A DNA stretch of 64,000 bases from positions 1 through 64,000 of the forward strand of contig NIVC01002507.1 in assembly GCA_002269645.1 (NCBI GenBank). Reading direction: 5' to 3'. Shown piece after piece: positions 43,435 to 63,621 of this stretch (within the stretch, counting starts at the first letter, position 1; each line of letters starts with the position of its first letter). Position numbers and translations under genes: made by a program. The notes beneath the pieces were generated by a model. That model had not been told where the DNA came from. It saw only the letters and a list, made by a program, of their open reading frames with translations, and did no database searches. This DNA is from Macrostomum lignano. Taxonomy: Eukaryota.

Positions 43435-44949
43435 GTCGCTCACTTCCGGCACCTAAAATTCGCGATGAGATGTGGGTGCAGCATGGAGTTTCTGTGTCTG
43501 CGCCAGCTTTTACACGTAAGACGTGAAACTGCTAAACAAAGATATTCGTAAATTGCATCAAACTTCTTGTACGCGTACTATACGAAATTTCTAATTTAGC
43601 AATCTGATTTCTGTTTTAGTACCCGGATGTAGTGACACATTTCTTGGCTTTTAGCTCGTGCTCGTAGTTTATCCAACCCTGCTGCCAAGAAATTTTAGAT
43701 GCAAAATCGTGTAGATTTAGTTTTTATTTGATTTTATATACAATGAAGCATCTGGCGAGCCAGACTCAGCCTTTGCTCTGACTTACCTGAGCATACGAGC
43801 GTAATTGCATGTATATTTGAGTGGCTCTAATGACCTCAATAGCTATAATACTATACATGTGTTGCAGATTTAGTCATCTTTTCAGATTGAATTTAAAAAT
43901 AATTTAGCAGTAGAAGTACAATACACACACAACCCCAAAGGACTCGCGAACGAGAATGTCTGTTAATCGAACGATGGTAGAAAATTCTGTGGTAACACAA
44001 AATATTTTGTTAACGATTCTAACTATTTTGCTTCCTATCTTTCCTTAAACAAATATCATTTGACAAAAGAGGACACTTTAACATGGCCATCAAATTATGC
44101 TCAAATTTCTTAAAAACTATGGTAACTAAATGTGCACGAAACTCAACTCACTGTCCATGTGGACTCACTCACCAAGAGATGTTGGCCAACTCCAGCTTCC
44201 TGCAGACTTTATGCAAGAAAATTTAAGAAGGGAGCACCACGGAAAACGCATGATTTTACAGGCGAAGCCGCGGTAACTCTGTGGCAGATCCAAGTAAAAT
44301 CCAAGTAAAAACCCACGGCTTTTCCGCGGCGAATGTTTCTCTTAAAGCAGTTGGAATTTGCCCCTCCTTTCAAGTACAACTAAAAGGCAATTCCATGGCT
44401 CTCCCATGGAAATTCAGTCAGTAGAATTGTTTAAATAGGGTTGGAGTGTGGGTGTATGCGTGCGCACAGTTGCCGCCCTATTGTACGAGTACGTAGCATG
44501 CCAGGAAAGAGAGACAGAAGAGATCTGTATCGTTCATGCGCTTTCAGACCAAGCATGCACTGTTCTCTGTACGCCGCCTAACGCTGTACGTTCGTACAAA
44601 AAAGAAAACTTCAATTTTTCTGTGAACTTAAGAGTTCTTTATTTATTGTTCAAAGCTCAAGGCCCAAAGGCAAAGCAGTTAACTGCAGGGAATGATTACA
44701 AGCATGTGACATACGTAGGGTCTGGTGGATGTCACTGTCGTCAAAAGTTAAGAGACTAAAATTTTCTTTAGGGTTTCACAAGGGTCTTCAGAATGTGTTT
44801 ATGAATTCTTCTTTTAGTTCAGTTCAACAACTGCGAGCAGTGCGAGCTTACGAGCTAAAAGTACTGAGGTGCAGAAACAGCATGAGTATTAGTTTCTTCG
44901 CTCTCATTTTTTTTCTGGTGGAAAACTTTAGCTAGAACTTTAGGGTATG

Positions 44950-45490
44950 TTTCACATTCCCCAGAGTTCACATTCCCCAGATTTCACATTCCCCAGAGTT
45001 CACATTCCCCAGAGTTCACATTCCCCAGAGTTCACATTCCCCAGATTTCACATTCCCCAGAGTTCACATTCCCCAGAGTTCACATTCCCCAGAGTTCACA
45101 TTCCCCAGATTTTACATTCCCCAGAGTTCACATTCCCCAGAGTTTACATTCCCCAGAGTTCACATTCACCAGAATTCCCATTTCCCAGATTTTGCATAAC
45201 CAGTTTTCACATTCCCCAGATTTCAAATTCCGCAGATTTCAAATTTCCCAGATCAAATTCCGCATATTTCACATTCCCCAGATTTCACATTCCGCAGATT
45301 TCAAATTCCGCAGATTTCACATTCACCAGATTTCACATTCCCCCAGTGTTCACATTCACCAGAATTCCCATTCCCCAGATTTTGCATCAACAGATTTCAC
45401 ATTTCCCAGATTTAACATTCCTTGCATTTCACACTCACCATATTTCACATTCCCAAGATTTTACGTTCCCAAAATTTTACATTCCCCATA
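44950..45490 (+). repeat. Expanded CACATTCCCCAGA(G/T)TT ~16-bp low-complexity repeat
   Basis: Tandem units. Degenerate versions occur at ~2130-2310, 9740-10110, 24590-24780, 37990-38190 and 48590-48700. Confidence 0.9.
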
Positions 45491-46769
45491 TTTCTCCGGC
45501 GTCGCAATAAACAACAATACAGCAGCACAGGGCGCGCCTCTGGGTCAGGTCGCAAAGGAGGGCCACGTCGACGACTGAATCCAGGGCGCAGGCGTCAGAC
45601 AGCAGGCAGGAGACAAGGCGCGAACCCGCGATACGCGGCCTGCCTGCCTGCTTGTGCCAGCTGGACGCCACCCTCACCCATGTACGTAGGAAAAACCCAG
45701 AGCTATTTTTAGCAACACATCTATAGAGAGCCATCTGCATGTGCAAGTACAAGGGATTCTCTGGCCTGTGCGGAACGCTCCTTGATTTTTAAACGTTATT
45801 AACAGGTTTTTTCCCTATTATCTTCTGCTTCCATGGCAGAAAGACTTCAAACACACCGGCCTCTAAGGCCCTATTATGAGTGCGAGGCTCACAGCTCAGA
45901 ATTCGCAGTAATGAACACTTCAAGGCAGTGTATCTTATAATCAACTAAAACTAATCAACTAATGAATAGTTTGAGCGGGGTAGGGTTAGCGCTCACGCAG
46001 TTTCTCTCTGTGCTGTTTTTATGGCAATTATCAACCCCCGCCTCTCAACACATTTTGCTGCGAGTCTTCTGTGTCACGCGTTCGCAGGCTGCTGGCTTGG
46101 CCCTCAAATCTCAGATTCGTTATTGTCATTTGGGCATTGAGATCGGCTTTCATAAGCTGGTCTGTTTGAATAGGTTTGATCAAGATGAGTAGAGGTTGTT
46201 GTTTTTTCCACTTCGATGCAAGCGCTTTTCCGGTGCTTACAGACAGGTATTAAAAGAATGAAAGAAACTGCAAATGATAACACGAACAAGTTTTGTAACT
46301 TAGATACTTACTGAATGTTATCTTACTTTTTATTTTCTTTCTTTCTAATCTCTTTCCACTTTCTTACTAATCTCTTCTTTGATTAAAAAGATCAGGAGCG
46401 TGGCCACGGAAGGGCCAAAGGGCGATCCGACCCTCCAAATAGGCTGGCAAAGCTAATGGCTGAGTACCTACTGACTTGGCGCCTCTTCAGCAGGTTTGGC
46501 GCTTCTTTTCCCAATTCTAGCAGTTCCCCCGACCACCACTTTGGCTACTTTGGCCCCAACAACAGCCCTTGGTGCTGGCGCCCCTTGGTGCTGACTCTCA
46601 TTGGCCCAAAAGTACCGGGGTGATAACGGAATGCTTGAGATACCAGCTGAGGATGTCCAGCAGCTTGCCTACTGGATCTCGCTTGATCATCGAAACTAGA
46701 TAAATTTGCAACAGCGTGTCTATAGTCACCTGGTGCCACCTGTGGAAGGTCCAGAAGCTCCGCCTGGGC

Positions 46770-47110
46770 GATGAGGAAGTGAAGCTGGATTTCGAGTAAT
46801 CAGACTCCATAATTATGGATAGTTTGGTCTCTTTTGCAAGCGCGGCTATTGGCTGATCAAATACGAGCTAGAGTTGACTGGCGAACCAAAATCAGACTCA
46901 TTCTTTTAGGACTGCGACTTGCTTGTTCTTAGCTCGTATTCTGCAGTTGGCTGGGCAGCCGCAAGCATCCAGCTGAGCACAGGTTGGCTCGAGTTTTCTC
47001 TCTTAATTATCATCTCTTGTTGGCTCTTATCATCAATGATAAGATTGACAGTTCTGAGTGAGTCACAGAAGACTGAGGAGTTTGTACTCAAAGCAGTATG
47101 GTTTCTATGG
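46770..47110 (-). pseudogene. Relic of receptor-like gene exon 6 (copy F), TM segment deleted
   Basis: Translates as STNSSVFCDSLRTVNLIIDD..SSQPVLSWMLAAAQPTAE, homologous to E6 with internal deletions. Upstream exons are absent. Confidence 0.75.
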
Positions 47111-47126
47111 TACGTTTGGTACTTTT

Positions 47127-47778
47127 GGCAGTCAAATTGTGGCAGTCAAATTGTGGCAGTCAAATTGTGGCAGTCAAATTGTGGCAGTCAAATTGTGGCA
47201 GTCAAATTGTGGCAGTCAAATTGTGGCAGTCAAATTGTGGCAGTCAAATTGTGGCAGTCAAATTGTGGCAGTCAAATTGTGGCAGTCAAATTGTGGCAGT
47301 CAAATTGTGGCAGTCAAATTGTGGCAGTCAAATTGTGGCAGTCAAATTGTGGCAGTCAAATTGTGGCAGTCAAATTGTGGCAGTCAAATTGTGGCAGTCA
47401 AATTGTGGCAGTCAAATTGTGGCAGTCAAATTGTGGCAGTCAAATTGTGGCAGTCAAATTGTGGCAGTCAAATTGTGGCAGTCAAATTGTGGCAGTCAAA
47501 TTGTGGCAGTCAAATTGTGGCAGTCAAATTGTGGCAGTCAAATTGTGGCAGTCAAATTGTGGCAGTCAAATTGTGGCAGTCAAATTGTGGCAGTCAAATT
47601 GTGGCAGTCAAATTGTGGCAGTCAAATTGTGGCAGTCAAATTGTGGCAGTCAAATTGTGGCAGTCAAATTGTGGCAGTCAAATTGTGGCAGTCAAATTGT
47701 GGCAGTCAAATTGTGGCAGTCAAATTGTGGCAGTCAAATTGTGGCAGTCAAATTGTGGCAGTCAAATTGTGGCAGTCA
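47127..47778 (+). repeat. 14-bp satellite (GGCAGTCAAATTGT)~46
   Basis: Perfect tandem 14-mer; accounts for the 14-aa periodic ORFs in all three plus frames. Confidence 0.98.
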
Positions 47779-50700
47779 ACTGCCACAGACTCAACTAAAT
47801 GTGCACGAAACTTAACTCATTGTCTCTGTGTACTAACCAAGAGAAGTTTCTCTGCTTCTTGCAATATTTGCAAATTTTGATGGGGGGTAGCAACCGTGGC
47901 AAACGCATGATTTTATTTACAGGTGAAGCTGCGGTAACTCTGTGGCAAGTCCAAGTGAAACCCACGGCTTTTCCGCGGATTTTTCTTCTGTGAATAAGTC
48001 TCCAAGTACTTTTAAAAGGTCATTCCATGGCTTTTCCATGGAAATTTAGCCGATACAATACAGGAATGCGGATCTATGCCGCCGAGTACTATGCGAGGAA
48101 AGAGAAGCAGAAGGACGCACGCTTCTTGTACCAAAGCAGTTTCCAAAGCAGCATGTACTGTTCGCTGTACGCCTCCCCCCCCCCAAAGTCAAGTGCTGTA
48201 CAAAAAAGGAACTTCAGTTTTGTTCCAAGTTACTTTAGATTTTTTTGTTGTTATTTTGAAAGGTTGCGAAATAAATGAATACGCAATATATGGTACAGTT
48301 CCCACAAAAAGTTCGTAGTTAATAGACTCATCTCACGGCTCAAAGCACTCAACTGCAAGGAATAAGATTATAAGCATGTGAAATTACGTCTGAGTCCGGC
48401 GGATGTCCCTCTCGTCTAAACTAAGGGATTAAAAGTTTATTTTTGTAATCTTTCTTTTAGTTTAGTTTCACAACTGCGAGCTCAAGGTACTGTACGTGTG
48501 GTGCACAAACAGCATTAATTTCGCTGCTCTCATTTTGTACCTTAGGCGGACATCTTAAGCTAGAATTTTCGGGCACTGGGTATGTTTCAAATTACCCCAT
48601 ATTTCATATTTTCCAGATTTCACATCCCTGAATTTTACATTTCTTACATTTTACATTCCCCAAATATTACGTTCCCAAATTCTACATTTCTTTGATTTCC
48701 CTGGCTTCGTAAAGAAGCATCAATAAGATTACGCTGTCAGATTACTTAGACGGCAGCGGCACAGGGCGCGCCTCTGGACCAGGTCGTGAAGGAATGTCAC
48801 GTCGCCGACCGAATCCGGTACATTGGCGTCAGCCAGCAGGCTGCAAACAAGGCGCGAAGCCATGATACGCGGCCTGCCTGCTTGTGCCAGCTGGACGCCG
48901 CCCTCACCCCATGTACGCAGGGGCGAACCCCAGAGCTATTTTTAGCAACACATCTGTAGAGTACAACTTGGGGATTCTCTGGTCTTTTCTGAACGCTCCT
49001 TGATTTTTAAAACGTTATTAACAAATTTTTTTCCTGTTATCTTATTATTGCATCGCTGAAGGACTTTCAAACACACTGGCCTCCAAAAGCCCTATTATGA
49101 GCGCGAGGCTCACAGCTCAGAATTCGCAGTACCGAATATTATTCAAAGCAGTGTATCTTATAGTCAACAAGAACGCATAGGCACAATGCAGAAAATGAAT
49201 ATTTTGAGTTGGATAGAGTTAGCGCTCCTGCAGTTTCTCTCTGTGCTGTTGTTAAGGCAACCATCAACCCCTGCATTTTGCTGGGAGTCTGTGTCACGCG
49301 TTCGTAGGCTGCTAGCTTGGCCCTCAAATCTCAGCTTCGTTATTGTCCTTTGGGAATTGAGGTCGGCTTTCTTAAGCTGGTCTGTTTGGATAGCTTCATG
49401 GTCAAGACGAGTAGAGGTCGTTGTTTTTCCACTTCGATGCAAGCTCTTCTCACCACCAAGCTCTTTTTCGGTGCTTACAGCTATTAAAAGAATAAAAGAA
49501 ACTGCAGATGACAAAATAAACATATTTTGTAACTTATATACTAATTTTAATTATCTTACCTTCTATTTTCCTTCTATCTAATTTCTTTCCACTTTCTTAT
49601 CAATCTCTTCTTTGATTAAAAAAGATCAGAAGCGTGGCCAGGGAAGGGCCCTCCAAAAAGGCTGGCAAAACTAAAGCCCCTTGGTGCTAAAGCCCCTTGG
49701 TGCTAAAGCCCCTTGGTGCTAAAGCCCCTTGGTGCTAAAGCCCCTTGGTGCTAAAGCCCCTTGGTGCTAAAGCCCCTTGGTGCTAAAGCCCCTTGGTGCT
49801 AAAGCCCCTTGGTGCTAAAGCCCCTTGGTGCTAAAGCCCCTTGGTGCTAAAGCCCCTTGGTCCTGGCGCCTCTCATTGCAGTCGTCCCTGAAAGGCACAG
49901 CCCCAATAAAAACCCTAGCTGAAAACCCTGATACGATAAACTCCAAACCAGGTCCGGGAATTTTAGAACTTGACGATAAAACATTTCCGTCGAATTCTGA
50001 CTCCCACCCACTGGGTAGAGATGCAGCTTCAAGACACTTTGTACAAAGAAATGAAGCCCGAACACTAACTACATCTAGATTTAATACTCTGTTGTCTAAA
50101 GAATAAAAAAGGTTAAATTCGATTCATTCTAATAATCCCGTACAGAAATCCGACACACGTGACGCCGCAGGTAAACGCAGGTACTTTTACAATACAGGGA
50201 CGTTCAGCCAACGTCGTTATTCGTCGGTGCAATGCGCCCATTTGTCGGATTCTATGGGCACTCGGTTATGATCTTTTCATAATGAAATGCATTCAATACA
50301 TTCAATTATTCTTCCCTGTTATTCTACTTACCTTTATTCTTATTCAACTCAGGGATGACTTACAGGCAGTTTTTCGATGCCTACTCATCAAGAATATTCT
50401 TGAAAGCAGCTCTCTGACTACCGTAATCACCGATAATTGAGATATTAGATTGCACAATTCTTGAATTACTGCGTTTCTGCTGGATTGTTCAAATGACAGG
50501 TAAATCAGTTTTTTATTATACGCTCGTAAATTCACACTAATTCAGGTACACTTGCATTAAAATCATAAATTTTGCAAAATGTTAAGTATACAACTGCTAC
50601 GAGTAGATTAGTGCGAAACACTCAGTCTCAATGCACTCGTTTATCAGCCACTATTTAATTAACTCAGCTAAAATGCATTCTAAACAGTCTACCATCATTT

Positions 50701-55436: not shown

Positions 55437-57150
55437 CTACTGTGCTGCTGCAGTGTGCCAATTCTGAAAGCATGGGACAGCACACAGCCCGGGCTCTCCT
55501 GGGCAACCAGCGCATACGAACACCGTTCTCTTGGCCGCACCATTGGTGTAGCAGACTCTGCATCGCTTTGTCGGCCTCGCATTAGCATCTGTCGGCGGCA
55601 GCTTCGATGGTGCGTGCTGTGAGACGGCCCTGCGCTTCGATGTATTTAGACGTTTGCCCCCGCTTGTCTGCTCCATGAGAGTGTGTAGATCGCAGCTTAC
55701 AAAAATTCAACGAATTTGATATCGCTTCCTCCTTGGCAGTTGCAGATCCAGGCATTACGGACCAACTGCAGTAAAATGTGGGACCCGAGCTTCTGGTGCC
55801 ATCTGTAGGTTCTTCTCCCCGCACTGTAAGGCTGCAGTGCTGCATCAAGGCAATGAACGCCTCCCATGTACTTATTGTACTGCAGCACCTAATTCGGCTT
55901 TAAAACTGACTCCTCCGCTCCGCCTCGGATCACTCGCCTCACTTCCGTGCTTTCAGCAACACCGTGCGTGTCCAAAAAGTACACAGTTTTGCGACCGCTT
56001 GCCTTCCTGTCTACCAGCTTGACTGCGAGAACATCGCCGCGGCGCATCTGGGAATGACTGACGGGTTGCAGGGGCAGCACTTTCAGCTCATTCGGCACAC
56101 CTCGATTGGGCCTCACCGTCCCAGTCAGTAAGGTACTGCGTTCCAGCAGAAACTGCGCCAGACGGAGCGATGTGAACCAGCTGTCACAGAAGACCTTGTA
56201 CCCTAGGTCCAGCAAATTTTTACTCAATTCAACGACGATCTTCTCGCTCATCGACAAATTCCCGCAGTTTAATCCATCTCCAAACTTGTCGTTATCCTGC
56301 TTAGCAGCATGTACATGAAAGTTCCACAGCAAACCTGTCGAAGCTTCCGTCAAGCAGTAGACCTTGCTGCCGAGTCTGACACGCTTGTTGGGCATGAACT
56401 GCCGGAAAATGAGCCTGCCCTTGTGCATGACCAGTTCCTCATCGACAGACGCCTCTTGACTTGGGCTGTAATTTGCTTGGCAAATATGGCGGGCAATGTT
56501 AAGAAAACGTCGAATCTTTTTCAAGGAGTCCTGGCGGTTGACGGTGGTGCAGTCGTAAAATCGAAGGACTGATAATATCTGCACAAACCGATCCCTTCCG
56601 GAAGTATTCGCCGCCGTAGAAGTCTCCCATGGACCAGTACATGTGCGTTTCGGGCTTCTTCACAAGACCCATGTACAGAACGATTGCTAGAGACTTCTTC
56701 ACCTCATTGTCGGTACACGGTCTCCAAGTTGATAGCAAATTGGGAAGAGCTCCGTCCTGATCTTCAGCTGTCAAATGTTGAAGCTCCATTTCAGCTCGGG
56801 CGTTGGTCCGAATGGCAGACACCAGATCAGCGGTGAGAAAGTGCTGCAGATAGAATTGCACCTGGGCCATTTTACCTTCAGGAGCTTGTGCTTGGATGTC
56901 TGGGTTCAGGCCAGGTACAGCGAGGAATTCGGGCAGATCGCTGAGACGCGAATCTTCACAATCGCGAATCTTGAGCAGCTGTCCATTCATTCTCGTTGGC
57001 GAACTCGACTCCATGCTCAGCTACTTCCACATTACTCTCATCATCTTCCTCGTCCAGCAACTCTCCATCGACACTCATATTCGCTGTCGCTGCCATCGCT
57101 GGTGAAAACAGGGGAACCTTCCATAATTGCAATTGCAGCCTCGTCAATGT
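55437..57150 (-). mobile_element. Decayed piggyBac transposase (PGBD/DDE_Tnp_1_7-like)
   Basis: Split minus-strand ORFs: acidic N-terminus; LAIVLYMGLVKKPETHMYWS; SVDEELVMHKGRLIFRQFMPNKRVRLGSKVYCL; VFCDSWFTS; TGTVRPNRG; YNKYMGGVHCLD (third Asp region altered); C-terminal RCRVC..VCAGCPGEPGLCAVPCFQNWH Cys-rich domain. Multiple frameshifts. Confidence 0.92.
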
Positions 57151-59462: not shown

Positions 59463-59562
59463 AGTAGTAGTATGTTATAAGGGGCTGCGCCACACTTAAT
59501 TGCTCGGGCGCATTGCGCGCCAGCTCGCTGGATGACTCAGCCCCTTATAACATACTACTACT
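59463..59562. mobile_element. Maverick/Polinton-type terminus in a 25-bp perfect inverted repeat
   Basis: AGTAGTAGTATGTTATAAGGGGCTG ... CAGCCCCTTATAACATACTACTACT. (AGT)n ends are characteristic of Polintons. A degenerate second copy of the loop plus right arm lies at ~60402-60479. Confidence 0.7.
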
Positions 59563-59977
59563 ACCAGGAGGTCATGGATTCAAGTGGGGGTGTGATAAAT
59601 ATAAAAATACATATATCTGTGACTGAGGGTGTTGAGGGTGAGGGCATGTGGGGGCATTGGCCTGTGGTATATTTCACAGAACACAGAATTTCCGGAATTT
59701 TTATACTTTTAAAAAGGGGGGGTGCCCTCGCCCTCATGCCCTCACTCATTTTGAAAATCACTAAAAACAGGTGAAAAATGACTAAAAACAGGTGAAAATG
59801 GTCTGAAAACAGCGATTTTTTGTGATTTTCTAATTTTTTTAAAAAGTGCAATTTTCACGATTCCAGCTCTAAAACCATGAGAAAAGTTGGATCCTCGGGT
59901 CAATTTAATGCAATTTCAGGTATATACAATATGAAAGTGTCATCCAATTCAACGATAGTAAATTATATATATATAAA

Positions 59978-60109
59978 ATGGCCTTCAGTAAACCAATATT
60001 TCTAGGAAATGCTTTAGATATTCAGTCAGCTATAACAAAACTGCCACTTGTCAACTCTGCAACAATGAAAAGCAGCACTCAACATTTCTATTGGCTTGCT
60101 GAAACATGA
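59978..60109 (+). pseudogene. Truncated paralog of the PLA2-integrase N-terminal leader
   Basis: MAFSKPIFLGNALDIQSAITKLP matches MAFNKPLFLGSALDIQSAMTKLP at 61372, including the upstream TATAAAATG; homology ends at ~60047. Confidence 0.8.
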
Positions 60110-61371
60110 ATAAATTCTGATGCAGATTTTGCACAATAGAATTACTTCTGAATTGCAAAATAAAATTCTCCTTCACCCTGTGGGACTGAATGTATTCGAA
60201 TTGTAGACAGCATTGTTATCACGATGACTAAGAATCATGGCTTCTTCCATATCTTCATCACCTCTGTCTTCTATTCTCTCTGACTCACTCAAAAACCCTC
60301 CAGCATCATGCAAAGAATTAAAGGTTTAGATTAGCTGCGAACAGCCATTCATCAACTCCCCTCCAAGCTGCTACAGCATGCATTTGCAACCCACTTCAAT
60401 GCCACACTTATTGCTCGGGCGCATTGCGCGCCAGCTCGCTGCCGCTGGATGACTCAGCCCCGTATAACACACTGCTACTCACTCACTCTAGAGAGAAAAA
60501 ATCTGTCACTGCCACAGGGCAGTGGCAAGGCAGTGGCAGGGCAGTGGCAGGGCAGTGGCAGGGCAGTGGCAACCAATTAGCGGCTGGCATAAGACATTTT
60601 AGACAGCATTTAAGGGCATACCCAAAATAAAGTATCCGCAACAAGTGTCCTCTGCTTAAATTATCAGTTTTCATTCCGAACGAACAGAATGCCCGGAAAT
60701 CCAACTAGGCGTGCTAGAATACTTGTGAACACACAAGAGAGAAACAATTTGAGAGGTTTGATTCACACACAATACCCCAATACTAGCTTCGTCACGTCTA
60801 CAAATGAGAATCAATTCCTTGAGCATTATCGCGTATACTTCGACAAAATTGAGAACGACATTGCGATGCTTAGGCTAGTTAAAAAACCATTGCGAAGGAT
60901 CGTTCTATCTTAGAAAATCAACGCCAACTAGAAATCGAGCGCTCGCTAGATGTAGACGTTCCAGAGGCACCTCCGACATACGAGGATGCTCAACAACAAG
61001 CTGCTCAAAACCAAGCTGCTCAAGACCAAGCTGCTCAAGACCAAGCTGCTCAAAACCAAGCTGCTCAAGACCAAGCTGCTCAAGACCAAGACATGAGTGA
61101 CTAAGGACTATCACTGTGACTGTGACTAAGGAGGACTGTAAGGACTGTGACTAAGGATTGTCATTGTGACTGTGACTAAGGATTGTTATGCATCGTCTTA
61201 TAAGTTTCTTTTAAAATATACCAAGATCTTTTATCAGCCATCTGTTTTGTGTAACATGTCGCTTTGGATTATTGTCTCGACTTGTCTTAAAATTCAGTCT
61301 ATTAAGTACTCAATGGAATGTATACAAACACTTTACAAGTAAAAATAAAGAAATAAAAAAATCTCTATAAA

Positions 61372-61503
61372 ATGGCCTTCAATAAACCACTATTTCTTGG
61401 TTCTGCATTAGACATTCAGTCAGCTATGACAAAACTGCCACCCATCTTCTCTACTGGAAAATATCCTGGAGAATTTCATATTCCAGGGTATTCTTTTGCA
61501 GGT
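61372..61503 (+). CDS. Exon 1 of Maverick PLA2-integrase fusion (44 codons)
   Basis: MAFNKPLFLGSALDIQSAMTKLPPIFSTGKYPGEFHIPGYSFAG, the N-terminal half of a parvovirus-type PLA2 Ca2+ loop. It joins in frame to CCC GGT (PG) at 62395. Confidence 0.9.
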
Positions 61504-62394
61504 TACCTTGTGGCCTGAGTGAGGAAAGTCAATGTCCTTGCTAGTCATCGAGCAGAGCTCGCGTCCCTTCAGGGCGATCGATAAGCACTTGTTAAATTTT
61601 TTAAAGTAAAAATGGAGCAAAAAATTCGAGAAATTCTCTTGAAACCAATTGACGACAAGGTGGGGTATGACCAAATTCTTTGCGATTTATTTCAAGAAGA
61701 GCTAATAATTTCACACAAGATTAAAGTTATTCAAATGAGACTAGGTAGACTATATGAAGTTTTAGCAGAAAAATATTTTGGATTCGAAAAGGTAAAAAAG
61801 ATTGACCTGGTTCACGTTGAGCGAAAGATTGCATTAGAGCTTAAATCTTCTGATAACACAGACAATTCCTCAAGTCGTGAAAGTAACTATCGGAAACTAT
61901 TAGACTATAAAAAGTCTAATCCCACCTACCAGTTGTTTTATGTATGCATCAATAAAACTGCAAACGAACCTAAGAATATTTTACTAGACAATGGAATCAC
62001 CCTTAAAACAGGAGAATTTGCATTGAAATTTCTTTATCGGGATAAATACACAAACATTATAACCAAGGTTAAACAAGTGCTTAGTGAATGGCGACACCTT
62101 CAAATTGCGGGAACTCCTTCAATAGCCTCAAGTACCACTTCAGCTGAGAAATCTTCTGAAGGAACACAGGTAATTCCTGTTCCCAACGGTAACAAGCTTG
62201 AGGACATGGTGGAAATCCGCAGCCAAGCTCCTAAGTCCGATCTTTGATCGAGTACCTATGGTACGTCCATTAAAGTTGACAAGGATATGGAGAAGGTTCA
62301 GAGACTTTATGGAGGTGGGGCTGAAGGATCTGGTCAATCCTGATGATGCCTTAAGATAAAGTCCAGCCTCTTTCGAAAGACTGAGGATCAACTG
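61504..62394 (+). ncRNA. Group I self-splicing intron, subgroup IC1-like (891 nt)
   Basis: The 5' exon ends in U and the intron ends in G. P AAATTGCGGGAA 62102-62113; Q AATCCGCAGC 62214-62223; R GTTCAGAGACTTTATG 62296-62311; S AAGATAAAGTC 62353-62363. P1 CAGGU/GCCUG (61499-61503/61513-61517) with U.G at the splice site; P3 CACCTTC/GGAGGTG; P7 with bulged A62302. Confidence 0.93.
61612..62247 (+). CDS. Intron-encoded PD-(D/E)XK restriction-endonuclease-like protein (candidate homing endonuclease), 211 aa
   Basis: Motifs MRLGRLYEVL ... KIDL ... IALELKSSDNTDNSSS fit the E..D..(E)xK catalytic pattern. The ORF starts in a peripheral intron loop and reads into the ribozyme core. Family assignment is from recalled motifs only. 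Confidence 0.7.
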   Translation: MEQKIREILLKPIDDKVGYDQILCDLFQEELIISHKIKVIQMRLGRLYEVLAEKYFGFEKVKKIDLVHVERKIALELKSSDNTDNSSSRESNYRKLLDYKKSNPTYQLFYVCINKTANEPKNILLDNGITLKTGEFALKFLYRDKYTNIITKVKQVLSEWRHLQIAGTPSIASSTTSAEKSSEGTQVIPVPNGNKLEDMVEIRSQAPKSDL

Positions 62395-63621
62395 CCCGGT
62401 ACAAATTTAGACAAGAGACTCAATCCAATTACAGACCGGCCTCGGTATGACAGTCTACCAATTAACCCAATCGATTGGACTGCTTACTATCATGACAAAA
62501 ACTATAGAGATGCTGAAAACACTTCTTCAAATCCAGAGGAAGCTCTAGCAAAGAAGCATATAGCTGATGAAAAAATGATAGCTGATTTAGATGCTATTCC
62601 AACCAGTGACTTGTCTGTGAAAGAGAGACTCATTCGAAATCTAGTAAAGCGTATTATCAAGGCTAAAGTTCGGTTTGGATTAGGCATTCATACTCACAAC
62701 CCCAACAATTGTATAGACTGTCTAACAATTTATGGTAAGGGTCTTAGCTATGAAGATGCAGTAAAATTGCATAAAGAATATCGAAAGCCAAGAGTATTTA
62801 GAAAAATGATTCACTATGCAAAAGACACAATTTGGCATGCAGATATCATTATCCTACCGCCCGAAAGAGGTTACAAATATGCTCTAACTATCATAGATGG
62901 TTTTACACGTTACGCCTGGGCAGTTCCTTTGAAAACAAAGACGGGAGCGGAAGTTGCAGAAGCTTTCCAAAAAGTATTTAAGGAATCAGGAAGACGATCA
63001 GAGAGACTTTGTGTAGATGAAGGCAAGGAGTTTTATAATCAGCATATGTACAAGCTATACTCGTTTTCAAAAGACAACATTAGAAAGAAGGATGAAAGGG
63101 GTGAATATATAAACAAGATGTTTTCAATTTATGGCGAGTCCAAGAATGCAATGATTGAGAGGTTCAATCGTACTCTCACAAATAAACTCTGGTTTGAATT
63201 TGATCTACAGGGTAATCAGAAGTGGCTCCACACATTGCCAGCTATTGTTGAAAAATACAACAACACAATCCATTCTGAGATTCTGATAACTTCTTCAGAA
63301 GCATCTAAACATCCTGAGCGAGTACCAAAGCCAACTTTCGAGTATTCAAATGAGAAACCAAACTTCAAAGTAGGTGACAAAGTTCATATCTATAGATATA
63401 AGGAGCACTTTGAAAAGGGTCGAAGAGGATATTGGAAAATTTCAGAAGTGTTTAGGATAAAGAAAATAGTTTACTCCAATCCCATAACCTACATTATTGA
63501 GGATGAGAATGGAGAAGAAATCATTGGATCATTTTACAAATCCCAGCTTCTACCAGCAAATTTTTCAACTAAAAATGAGCGCCTATCGAACAAACTGCAA
63601 ACGGGCGAAAGGTCAGATTGA
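62395..63621 (+). CDS. Exon 2 of PLA2-integrase fusion: PLA2 catalytic half plus Maverick/Polinton retroviral-like DDE integrase
   Basis: PGTNLDKRL..PINPIDWTAYYHDKNY (DxxAxxHDxxY), then WHADII / YALTIIDGFTRYAWAVPLKTKT / VDEGKEFYN / IERFNRTL / YNNTIHS / FKVGDKV / TYIIEDENGEEIIGSFY. The DDE triad appears intact. Spliced product is 452 aa. Confidence 0.93.
   Translation, partial: PGTNLDKRLNPITDRPRYDSLPINPIDWTAYYHDKNYRDAENTSSNPEEALAKKHIADEKMIADLDAIPTSDLSVKERLIRNLVKRIIKAKVRFGLGIHTHNPNNCIDCLTIYGKGLSYEDAVKLHKEYRKPRVFRKMIHYAKDTIWHADIIILPPERGYKYALTIIDGFTRYAWAVPLKTKTGAEVAEAFQKVFKESGRRSERLCVDEGKEFYNQHMYKLYSFSKDNIRKKDERGEYINKMFSIYGESKNAMIERFNRTLTNKLWFEFDLQGNQKWLHTLPAIVEKYNNTIHSEILITSSEASKHPERVPKPTFEYSNEKPNFKVGDKVHIYRYKEHFEKGRRGYWKISEVFRIKKIVYSNPITYIIEDENGEEIIGSFYKSQLLPANFSTKNERLSNKLQTGERSD

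Follow-up and report, generated by a model that had tools for sequence, protein, structure and literature searches.

A predicted GGNCC-specific restriction-type nuclease in a group I intron of Maverick elements from Macrostomum lignano

The interrupted Maverick gene and its group I intron

The window analysed in this study, a 64-kb (64,000-nucleotide) stretch of a Macrostomum lignano contig, contains only part of its copy of a Maverick element hosted by this animal. Matches to Wnt and collagen IV mark the 764-Mb host genome as that of an animal. Terminal inverted repeats, a packaging ATPase (Pox_A32), a DJR-like capsid protein, an rve integrase, PLA2 and a primase-helicase were found in the element, and matches to polymerase B (PF03175) adjoin copies of a second family (family 2), whose proteins share ~60% identity with those of family 1, the family of the window's copy. 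The element is assigned to the Mavericks/Polintons (adintovirus-like), and within these to the PLA2-bearing kind described in the accessible text of PMC8502044. The first-pass annotation had named the interrupted gene PLA2. The PLA2 domain is indeed present, but the predicted product is a PLA2-integrase fusion rather than PLA2 alone, and a natural intron-less allele (L071:2084-3439) bears both PF08398 and PF00665. The features of the locus are collected in Table 1.

Table 1. Positions of the features discussed in the text (window coordinates unless a locus is named)
Feature	Position	Strand	Basis
Terminal inverted repeat copy; left end of this element copy rearranged	59463..60047	+	94.5% over 596 nt to another copy's repeat
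Exon 1 of the PLA2-integrase gene, 44 codons, ending at the Gly codon of the PLA2 G-P-G motif	61372..61503	+	Intron-less allele comparison
P1, exon end paired with internal guide; U.G at 5' splice site	61499..61517	+	MFE and centroid both paired
GGNCC site split by the intron, 5' part GGT	61501..61503	+	Intron-less allele comparison
Group I intron, 891 nt, phase 0, P5abc present, terminal G	61504..62394	+	RF00028, intron-less alleles, compensatory changes
12-bp stem, 5' arm; extends P2.1, loops out the ORF	61582..61593	+	Exact reverse complement of 3' arm
T-A-run-TG start context, candidate internal promoter/start signal	61607..61614	+	Common to most genes of these elements; function predicted
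Eco47II-family PD-(D/E)XK endonuclease ORF (predicted), 211 aa	61612..62247	+	Pfam, structure match
Codons of putative catalytic E49, D65, E76, K78	61756..61845	+	Conservation
12-bp stem, 3' arm; doubles as ORF coding sequence	62072..62083	+	Exact reverse complement of 5' arm
Ribozyme core	62096..62386	+	Rfam match, helix alignment
P3	62096/62311	+	Ribozyme core helix
P4	62105/62217	+	Ribozyme core helix
P5a	62126/62197	+	Ribozyme core helix
P5b	62138/62156	+	Ribozyme core helix
P7	62303/62359	+	Ribozyme core helix
P9	62367/62383	+	Ribozyme core helix
GGNCC site split by the intron, 3' part CC	62395..62396	+	Intron-less allele comparison
Exon 2, remaining PLA2 domain and retroviral-type integrase	62395..63621	+	rve E=4e-10, allele comparison
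Cysteine-pair ORF of nuclease-less family-2 copies	L102:1221-1793, L107:6907-7476, L108:2211-2783		

The borders of the intron were set by 16 natural intron-less alleles and fall between a Gly codon and a Pro codon, with exon 1 ending and exon 2 starting exactly where the first-pass annotation had drawn the intron-less junction. Rfam model RF00028 matched the core at 62025-62385 with 82.6 bits (gathering threshold 50), and the Rfam cut-off was not reached by any of the three family-2 introns tested. Across nine aligned copies, the core helices are paired in nearly all cells and the pairs of P7, P4, P5a and P9 are preserved despite two-sided changes, while the internal guide of P1 is conserved in both families. 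Judged by sequence, a ribozyme core with the P1 U.G, P3-P9 and a terminal G is present, a hallmark of mobile group I introns. By its features, we take the intron class to be IC1-like.

The two arms of the 12-bp stem are exact reverse complements, as first noted. A match of at least 12 bp between the shuffled 5' part of the intron and the rest of it arose in 12 of 2000 shuffles, and the pair probability of the stem in the full intron (0.33-0.39) gives it moderate thermodynamic support. The stem is retained in all five family-1 copies displayed, and a metagenomic relative (L130) was seen by eye to have a perfect 11-bp stem of other sequence at the same position. ORF-less cognate introns have merely a short hairpin there, indicating that the ORF sits in the P2.1 loop, in line with the earlier view that the stem extends P2.1 and loops out the ORF. 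The further claim that the ORF reads through P3-P6 also held: its frame continues through P3, P4, P5abc and P6 and stops at 62247, ahead of P7 (62303). The intron is presumably active in splicing, and a weak indication came from one contig (depth 3.3, from a different allele) with the exact junction of 61503, at the end of an exon 1 of the intron-bearing type, to exon 2, found in one of three probable RNA runs whose RNA status was guessed. The spliced junction was absent from the two other probable RNA runs and from a fourth, untyped run.

The site occurs in four states among 60 loci examined (the 20 best ORF matches, 20 taken from weaker matches and 20 from 40 exon-2 matches), drawn from a genome with at least 153 matches to the nuclease protein (150 of 273 candidates scored). 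Family 1 has the ORF within the intron at 23 loci and neither intron nor ORF at 16; family 2 has a free-standing ORF directly 5' of exon 1 together with an ORF-less intron of ~300 nt at 14 loci, and the intron only at five. The remaining two loci are fragments, and the counts are not independent, since many of the 60 loci are near-identical and some may be assembly duplicates.

Several variants of this arrangement were observed. The window carries ~30 extra bases (61550-61581), with a small hairpin 5' of the 12-bp stem, that are missing from most family-1 copies; short inserts of this kind also occur in P5c and P6 of other copies. In family 2 (L021-L040), 13 of 19 introns have A instead of G as the last base ahead of the Pro codon; the P7 binding site keeps its G:C pair. 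Group I introns seldom end in A. At the same insertion site, L022, L025 and L028 have a different ribozyme core (other P1, P4/P6 and P7) that shares P5abc with the common intron, pointing to a chimeric or a second intron type. In L051 (oriented 600-1500), a decayed exon 1 and intron 5' end lie ~750 bases upstream of an intron-less gene. Nuclease-less family-2 copies have an ORF of 190-191 aa with cysteine pairs in the same slot 5' of PLA2; it gave no Pfam match above cut-off, and its atlas neighbours are unnamed viral proteins, the nearest named clusters being HNH at 0.87-0.89, which we take as a lead only.

The intron core motif was also found in at least 121 stretches of viral contigs, many of them in giant-virus bins (L205-L290). 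Of 86 viral loci, 71 match the intron core, with 66-79% identity in the best 15 matches, and no nuclease-domain match was found near the 86 viral intron loci. A search with the P1 pattern returned 58 loci, none with the core or the ORF, and searches of viral contigs with the PLA2-integrase N-terminus and with alignment A3 gave nothing useful.

Elsewhere in the window, the terminal-repeat copy 5' of exon 1 (within 59463-61365) contains ~70 bases from the start of the PLA2 gene, and an inverted repeat (59463-59562), a partial repeat (60401-60479) and short tandem repeats lie in the same stretch. On the host side (55889-57014 and 1-59000) there are split transposase frames, presumably piggyBac-like, and a tandem array of related genes ending in a membrane segment, with simple repeats at 44947-45510 and 47036-47880.

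The encoded nuclease

The 211-aa ORF reported earlier was confirmed. Its folded domain comprises residues 1-165 and its tail is a read-through of the ribozyme core; in the AlphaFold model, pLDDT is 70-97 per block up to residue 160 and below 50 from residue 165. The sole Pfam match was RE_Eco47II (PF09553, residues 17-120), whose score of 27.3 bits is barely above the cut-off of 25.9 and is not attained by all relatives, four of six close homologs scanned scoring below that cut-off. No Pfam match to LAGLIDADG, GIY-YIG, HNH or His-Cys was found at E≤1, and the PDB sequence search gave one chance-level match and no sequence match to solved homing enzymes. In a structure search of 48,161 chains, EcoO109I was the best match (Z 9.7, 166 aligned, rmsd 3.9) and the only one with Z≥8; Foldseek rows at E≤1e-3 include EcoO109I and AvaII, and the DdmD nuclease domain was also matched.

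The motifs G45-x3-E49, D65, E76-L-K78 and N82-T-D-N-S-S-S are present in the protein. Among 15 homologs, there is no variation at E76 or K78 and conservation is at least 90% at E49 and D65, and the PD-(D/E)XK pattern points to a catalytic role for these four residues. By sequence and model together, the protein is a member of the Eco47II family with a restriction-type fold. The first-pass annotation fared well here, having named the PD-(D/E)XK fold, these motifs, a likeness to Eco47II, homologs in giant viruses and the lack of the classical homing motifs.

A profile search retrieved 298 relatives at E≤0.001. Ten homologs on viral contigs, four of which are in named giant-virus bins, are 30-35% identical to the Maverick protein, and a C5 methylase adjoins the viral homolog in all nine neighbours tested. 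No C5 methylase (PF00145) was found among 27 element proteins or on the contigs of the examined elements; the 12 genome-wide PF00145 matches all lie elsewhere, and the two that were inspected are both host-gene-like. Since no cognate methylase is linked to the nuclease, the Maverick gene does not belong to a type II restriction-modification system. The GTDB search yielded one locus, 33% identical across a short stretch. The closest environmental homologs (P0002-P0021) are probably located in introns, as judged from their read-through tails. A further homolog of 542 aa (P0031) appears by eye to have a C5-methylase-like N-terminus fused to the nuclease domain.

The dN/dS of the nuclease was 0.24-0.33 against diverged intact family-1 copies, 0.12-0.21 against intact family-2 copies and 0.13-0.40 in most family-2 pairs, with higher values for near-identical or damaged copies. 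Free-standing copies are as constrained as the others. The nuclease ORF is under purifying selection, and many of its genomic copies are broken. Between the two families, its dS of 1.4-2.4 is near saturation at silent sites.

GGNCC at the insertion point and in the rest of the element

According to the accessible parts of the sources, Eco47II homologs are assigned the site GGNCC (PMC10305163) and EcoO109I cuts RG^GNCCY (PMC3089450). Of 42 intron-bearing loci, 40 have a first exon that ends in GGT and a second that begins with CC. The gene region is free of GGNCC in 40 of the 42, the exceptions (L003 and L018) having stop-broken ORFs. In 15 of 16 intron-less alleles, an intact GGNCC stands at the junction and is the sole GGNCC of the 1-kb gene region. 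The site at the junction is forced, because the Gly-Pro codons of PLA2 (GGN CCN) always contain GGNCC.

The occurrence of GGNCC was compared with the expectation of an order-2 Markov model and ranked among 136 patterns. In family 1, a stretch of 17.2 kb has 0 sites where 17.7 are expected (P 2e-8, rank 1 of 136), and a second stretch of 15.8 kb has 0 where 14.3 are expected; the window's own copy has 0 in 5.4 kb against 6.3. In family 2, there were 0 in 17.2 kb against 17.2 expected (rank 1 of 136) and 1 in another stretch of 8.8 kb against 8.5, and the numbers seen and expected in three nuclease-bearing copies were 0/12.0, 1/14.4 and 0/12.4. GGNCC ranked first or second of the 136 patterns in all seven sets from the two families and first of 336 palindromic patterns in both, and its six one-letter neighbours show no comparable depletion. 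The loss covers sites with either W or S at the centre and extends to every flank class. In each of two intron-less family-1 copies, 12-14 kb contain a single GGNCC, located at the insertion point. At the protein level, no Gly-Pro dipeptide occurs in 22 long ORFs of both families against 11.2 expected (6.6 + 4.6), and Pro-Gly occurs 10 times in the same ORFs. As the families are near saturation at the silent sites of the nuclease, the purge appears to have been maintained in each. Gene-less copies (family-2 C1695 and intron-less family 1) avoid the site just as strongly, so that avoidance does not follow the gene in cis.

As controls, seven pieces of other Mavericks, 6-10 kb long rather than whole elements and mostly of higher GC, ranked 7-76 for GGNCC; one of them is mildly depleted (5 against 11.5 expected, rank 7). 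The host part of the window has 91 sites against 110.7 expected. Overall, these controls and the host DNA lie close to expectation. Base composition was rejected as the cause, as family 1 shows no depletion of CCNGG or GCNGC and a control stretch of 31% GC has 3 sites against 4.8. Several further Maverick-like families (PF03175) in the same genome have higher GC, normal GGNCC counts and no T-A-run-TG starts.

Since the intron-less alleles read T-GGCCC-A, narrower specificities were considered. A GGWCC-only (AvaII-like) site fails as the whole story because S-centre sites are also missing (0 against 6.6 and 5.4), and so does an RGGNCCY-only (EcoO109I-like) site because other flanks are also missing (0 against 13.5 and 14.4); the enzyme may still have a flank preference within GGNCC. 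Taken with the family label, the depletion makes GGNCC the likely specificity of the enzyme.

A second depletion was observed in family 2 and is absent in family 1: CCWGG was found 2 times against 13.5 expected in L108-L109, and 3/10.2, 4/11.4 and 5/11.0 times in L200-L202. No enzyme matching this loss in family 2 was identified, and outside nucleases may therefore shape these genomes.

Homing, interference and competing explanations

Between ten intron-bearing and ten intron-less family-1 copies, fixed differences were found only at -6, -4, -1 and +3. The backbones of the two classes interleave and are up to 99% identical, as for the intron-less copy L041 and the backbone of the window (99%), and copies with backbones only 93-95% alike have intron ORF blocks that agree at 95-100%. 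Because the fixed differences span only -6 to +3 and the backbones interleave, the pattern is as expected of homing with short co-conversion; the tract is short and co-conversion-like, and general Maverick recombination can mimic or add to such a signal. Intron-less alleles whose site is intact have survived in the genome (16 of 17 loci selected as lacking the ORF). At the independent metagenomic locus L130, an ORF encoding a 50% identical protein likewise lies in an intron placed between GGT and CC.

A phylogeny with the viral homologs, as the first-pass annotation had suggested, was built from 81 rows (none dropped, 58 without context) and midpoint-rooted. Thirteen intron-embedded or read-through proteins and two free-standing ones form one supported group, and eight methylase-linked viral proteins stand apart from it, but the direction of transfer is unsupported. 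In particular, a passage from free-standing to intronic genes finds no support because the free-standing pair is nested among the read-through forms, and the order may be reversed.

We propose that the ORF probably encodes an active, methylase-free type II restriction-type nuclease with the short site GGNCC, from which the element is protected by purge and intron. The nuclease would derive from restriction-modification systems of the giant-virus type and would have been kept by Mavericks without the methylase. Self-protection would be twofold: GGNCC would be purged from the element even at the cost of Gly-Pro dipeptides, and the group I intron would split the only site that cannot be dispensed with, which encodes Gly-Pro in the PLA2 motif. 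The predicted GGNCC target lies exactly at the insertion site, and the intron abolishes it. An intron-less relative would receive a single cut at the insertion point, where an EcoO109I-like cut would leave two nicks bracketing that point, and this would lead to homing; unrelated co-occurring viral DNA would be cut every few hundred bases, resulting in interference. The restriction role and the homing role would thus be one, because the short GGNCC site is also the insertion point and is missing elsewhere in the element. Host DNA retains GGNCC, so the enzyme must be kept from the chromosomes and would act away from them, for example in a virus factory.

The earlier claim that the target lies at the intron-less PLA2 junction accords with the GGNCC found there, but the long-site homing enzyme that it implied finds no support, the best reading being that the protein is probably not a classical enzyme of this kind. 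Neither does a short site speak against homing, as had been assumed, since here the short site is the insertion point and is missing elsewhere in the element. The wider proposition, which we regard as evenly balanced between true and false, is that animal Mavericks possess a restriction system that has no methylase and relies on a self-splicing intron in place of modification, its enzyme serving both homing in relatives and the shredding of competing or helper DNA viruses in the same cell.

If true, a type II restriction enzyme could become a homing endonuclease directly, with no gain in specificity, and one genome would display both the free-standing and the intron-embedded stage. A frequent cutter could serve as a homing enzyme, its target being unique through genome-wide avoidance and not through a long site. 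The reason for an intron at a given codon pair would be that Gly-Pro always spells GGNCC, with no recoding possible. Mobile group I introns would be placed in elements integrated in animal chromosomes. A further prediction, given the abundance of GGNCC in host DNA, is that gene expression and replication of these Mavericks take place apart from host chromatin, probably in company with a large DNA virus; this touches on how animal Mavericks live.

Three other explanations were weighed. In the first, which we consider unlikely, an outside enzyme, belonging to the restriction system of a giant virus that acts as helper or competitor, selected for both the GGNCC purge and the intron, and the Maverick later captured the nuclease gene, which would now mainly spread itself or be dispensable. 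The methylases that accompany the homologs on giant-virus contigs, the equal purge of gene-less copies, the avoidance of CCWGG by family 2, the other ORF in the nuclease slot of some family-2 copies and the relatives of the intron core at most viral loci examined, many in giant-virus bins, would all fit such a history. However, a helper methylase would be expected to protect factory-made DNA and render avoidance needless, and purifying selection acts on the Maverick gene, whose acidic and lysine residues are retained. This explanation and the methylase-free system proposed above are compatible, not exclusive.

Less probable again is a classical homing endonuclease with extended contacts and a long junction site like that of I-Ssp6803I, the purge being a relic of a short-site stage. 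The ORF does lie in a peripheral intron loop and read through into the core, the co-conversion-like tract is short, and PD-(D/E)XK homing enzymes exist (PMC3943268, from its accessible text). However, the folded part is modelled as a bare 165-aa nuclease domain with no extra DNA-binding module, every flank class of GGNCC is missing, and a complete purge in two families whose nucleases differ by a dS of 1.4-2.4 argues for continuing selection. That the ORF is an inactive or non-nuclease passenger (a relic or maturase) hitch-hiking with the intron, as its broken genomic copies might suggest, is very improbable given the dN/dS of 0.12-0.33 among intact copies, the equal constraint on free-standing copies and the identity of the word absent from the element with the site of the nuclease family.

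In the literature searched, in which subscription papers are thinly covered, we found no Maverick intron described as containing an ORF of a restriction family and no animal Maverick described as having a group I intron; each ingredient of the proposed system has precedent, and it is the combination for which no report was found. PacI is a solitary restriction enzyme with no known methylase, whose site is absent from its host genome. The Maverick nuclease would share with it restriction without modification, made safe through site absence, whereas PacI has an 8-bp site and an HNH fold and involves no intron. With the Eco47II-family (PF09553) restriction-modification systems, including those of giant viruses, the Maverick enzyme has in common the nuclease family, the fold and a short palindromic site, but it has no cognate methylase, self being marked by site absence and intron, and its gene lies in or beside a group I intron of an integrating element of 15-20 kb. 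The restriction systems of marseillevirus and chlorovirus are proposed, in the accessible text of PMC7253447, to exclude co-infecting viruses.

The restriction-fold homing enzyme of a cyanobacterial intron likewise has a restriction-like fold, is encoded within an intron loop and has its target where the intron is inserted; it differs in host, which here is an animal Maverick. Known homing enzymes read long sites, often >20 bp (PMC3943268) or 14 to >40 bp (PMC13565253) in the available parts of these papers, whereas the predicted Maverick site has 5 bp and would owe its uniqueness to the purge. Family 2 resembles phage collaborative homing, as outlined in the accessible part of PMC3984707, in having a free-standing nuclease directly upstream of a gene with an ORF-less intron at the target; unlike there, free-standing and in-intron states are both found here in one genome. 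Phage PhiPA3 gp210 (PMC11620839) and the introns of Bodo saltans virus (PMC5871332) follow, in the text available, the same logic, in which the intron masks the self target and the nuclease damages competitors. Their enzymes are HNH or GIY-YIG and aimed at one locus of close relatives, whereas a GGNCC cutter would hit any unprotected viral genome repeatedly. RF00028 introns in protein genes of Polinton-type elements are shared with protist Polinton-like viruses (PMC12220804), where, in the accessible text, they occur in few protist groups, measure 309-376 bp and have no annotated endonuclease, in contrast to the animal host and nuclease-bearing intron here. Nematode Polintons are described with HNH or VSR domains in the polymerase in the accessible part of PMC10748475.

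The nuclease ORF shares its start context with most genes of these elements. A T-A-run-TG start was found in 18 of 33 long ORFs of families 1 and 2 and in 3 of 33 control ORFs (p=1.4e-4); it may be a transcription signal of viral type. In form, it presumably resembles poxvirus late promoters.
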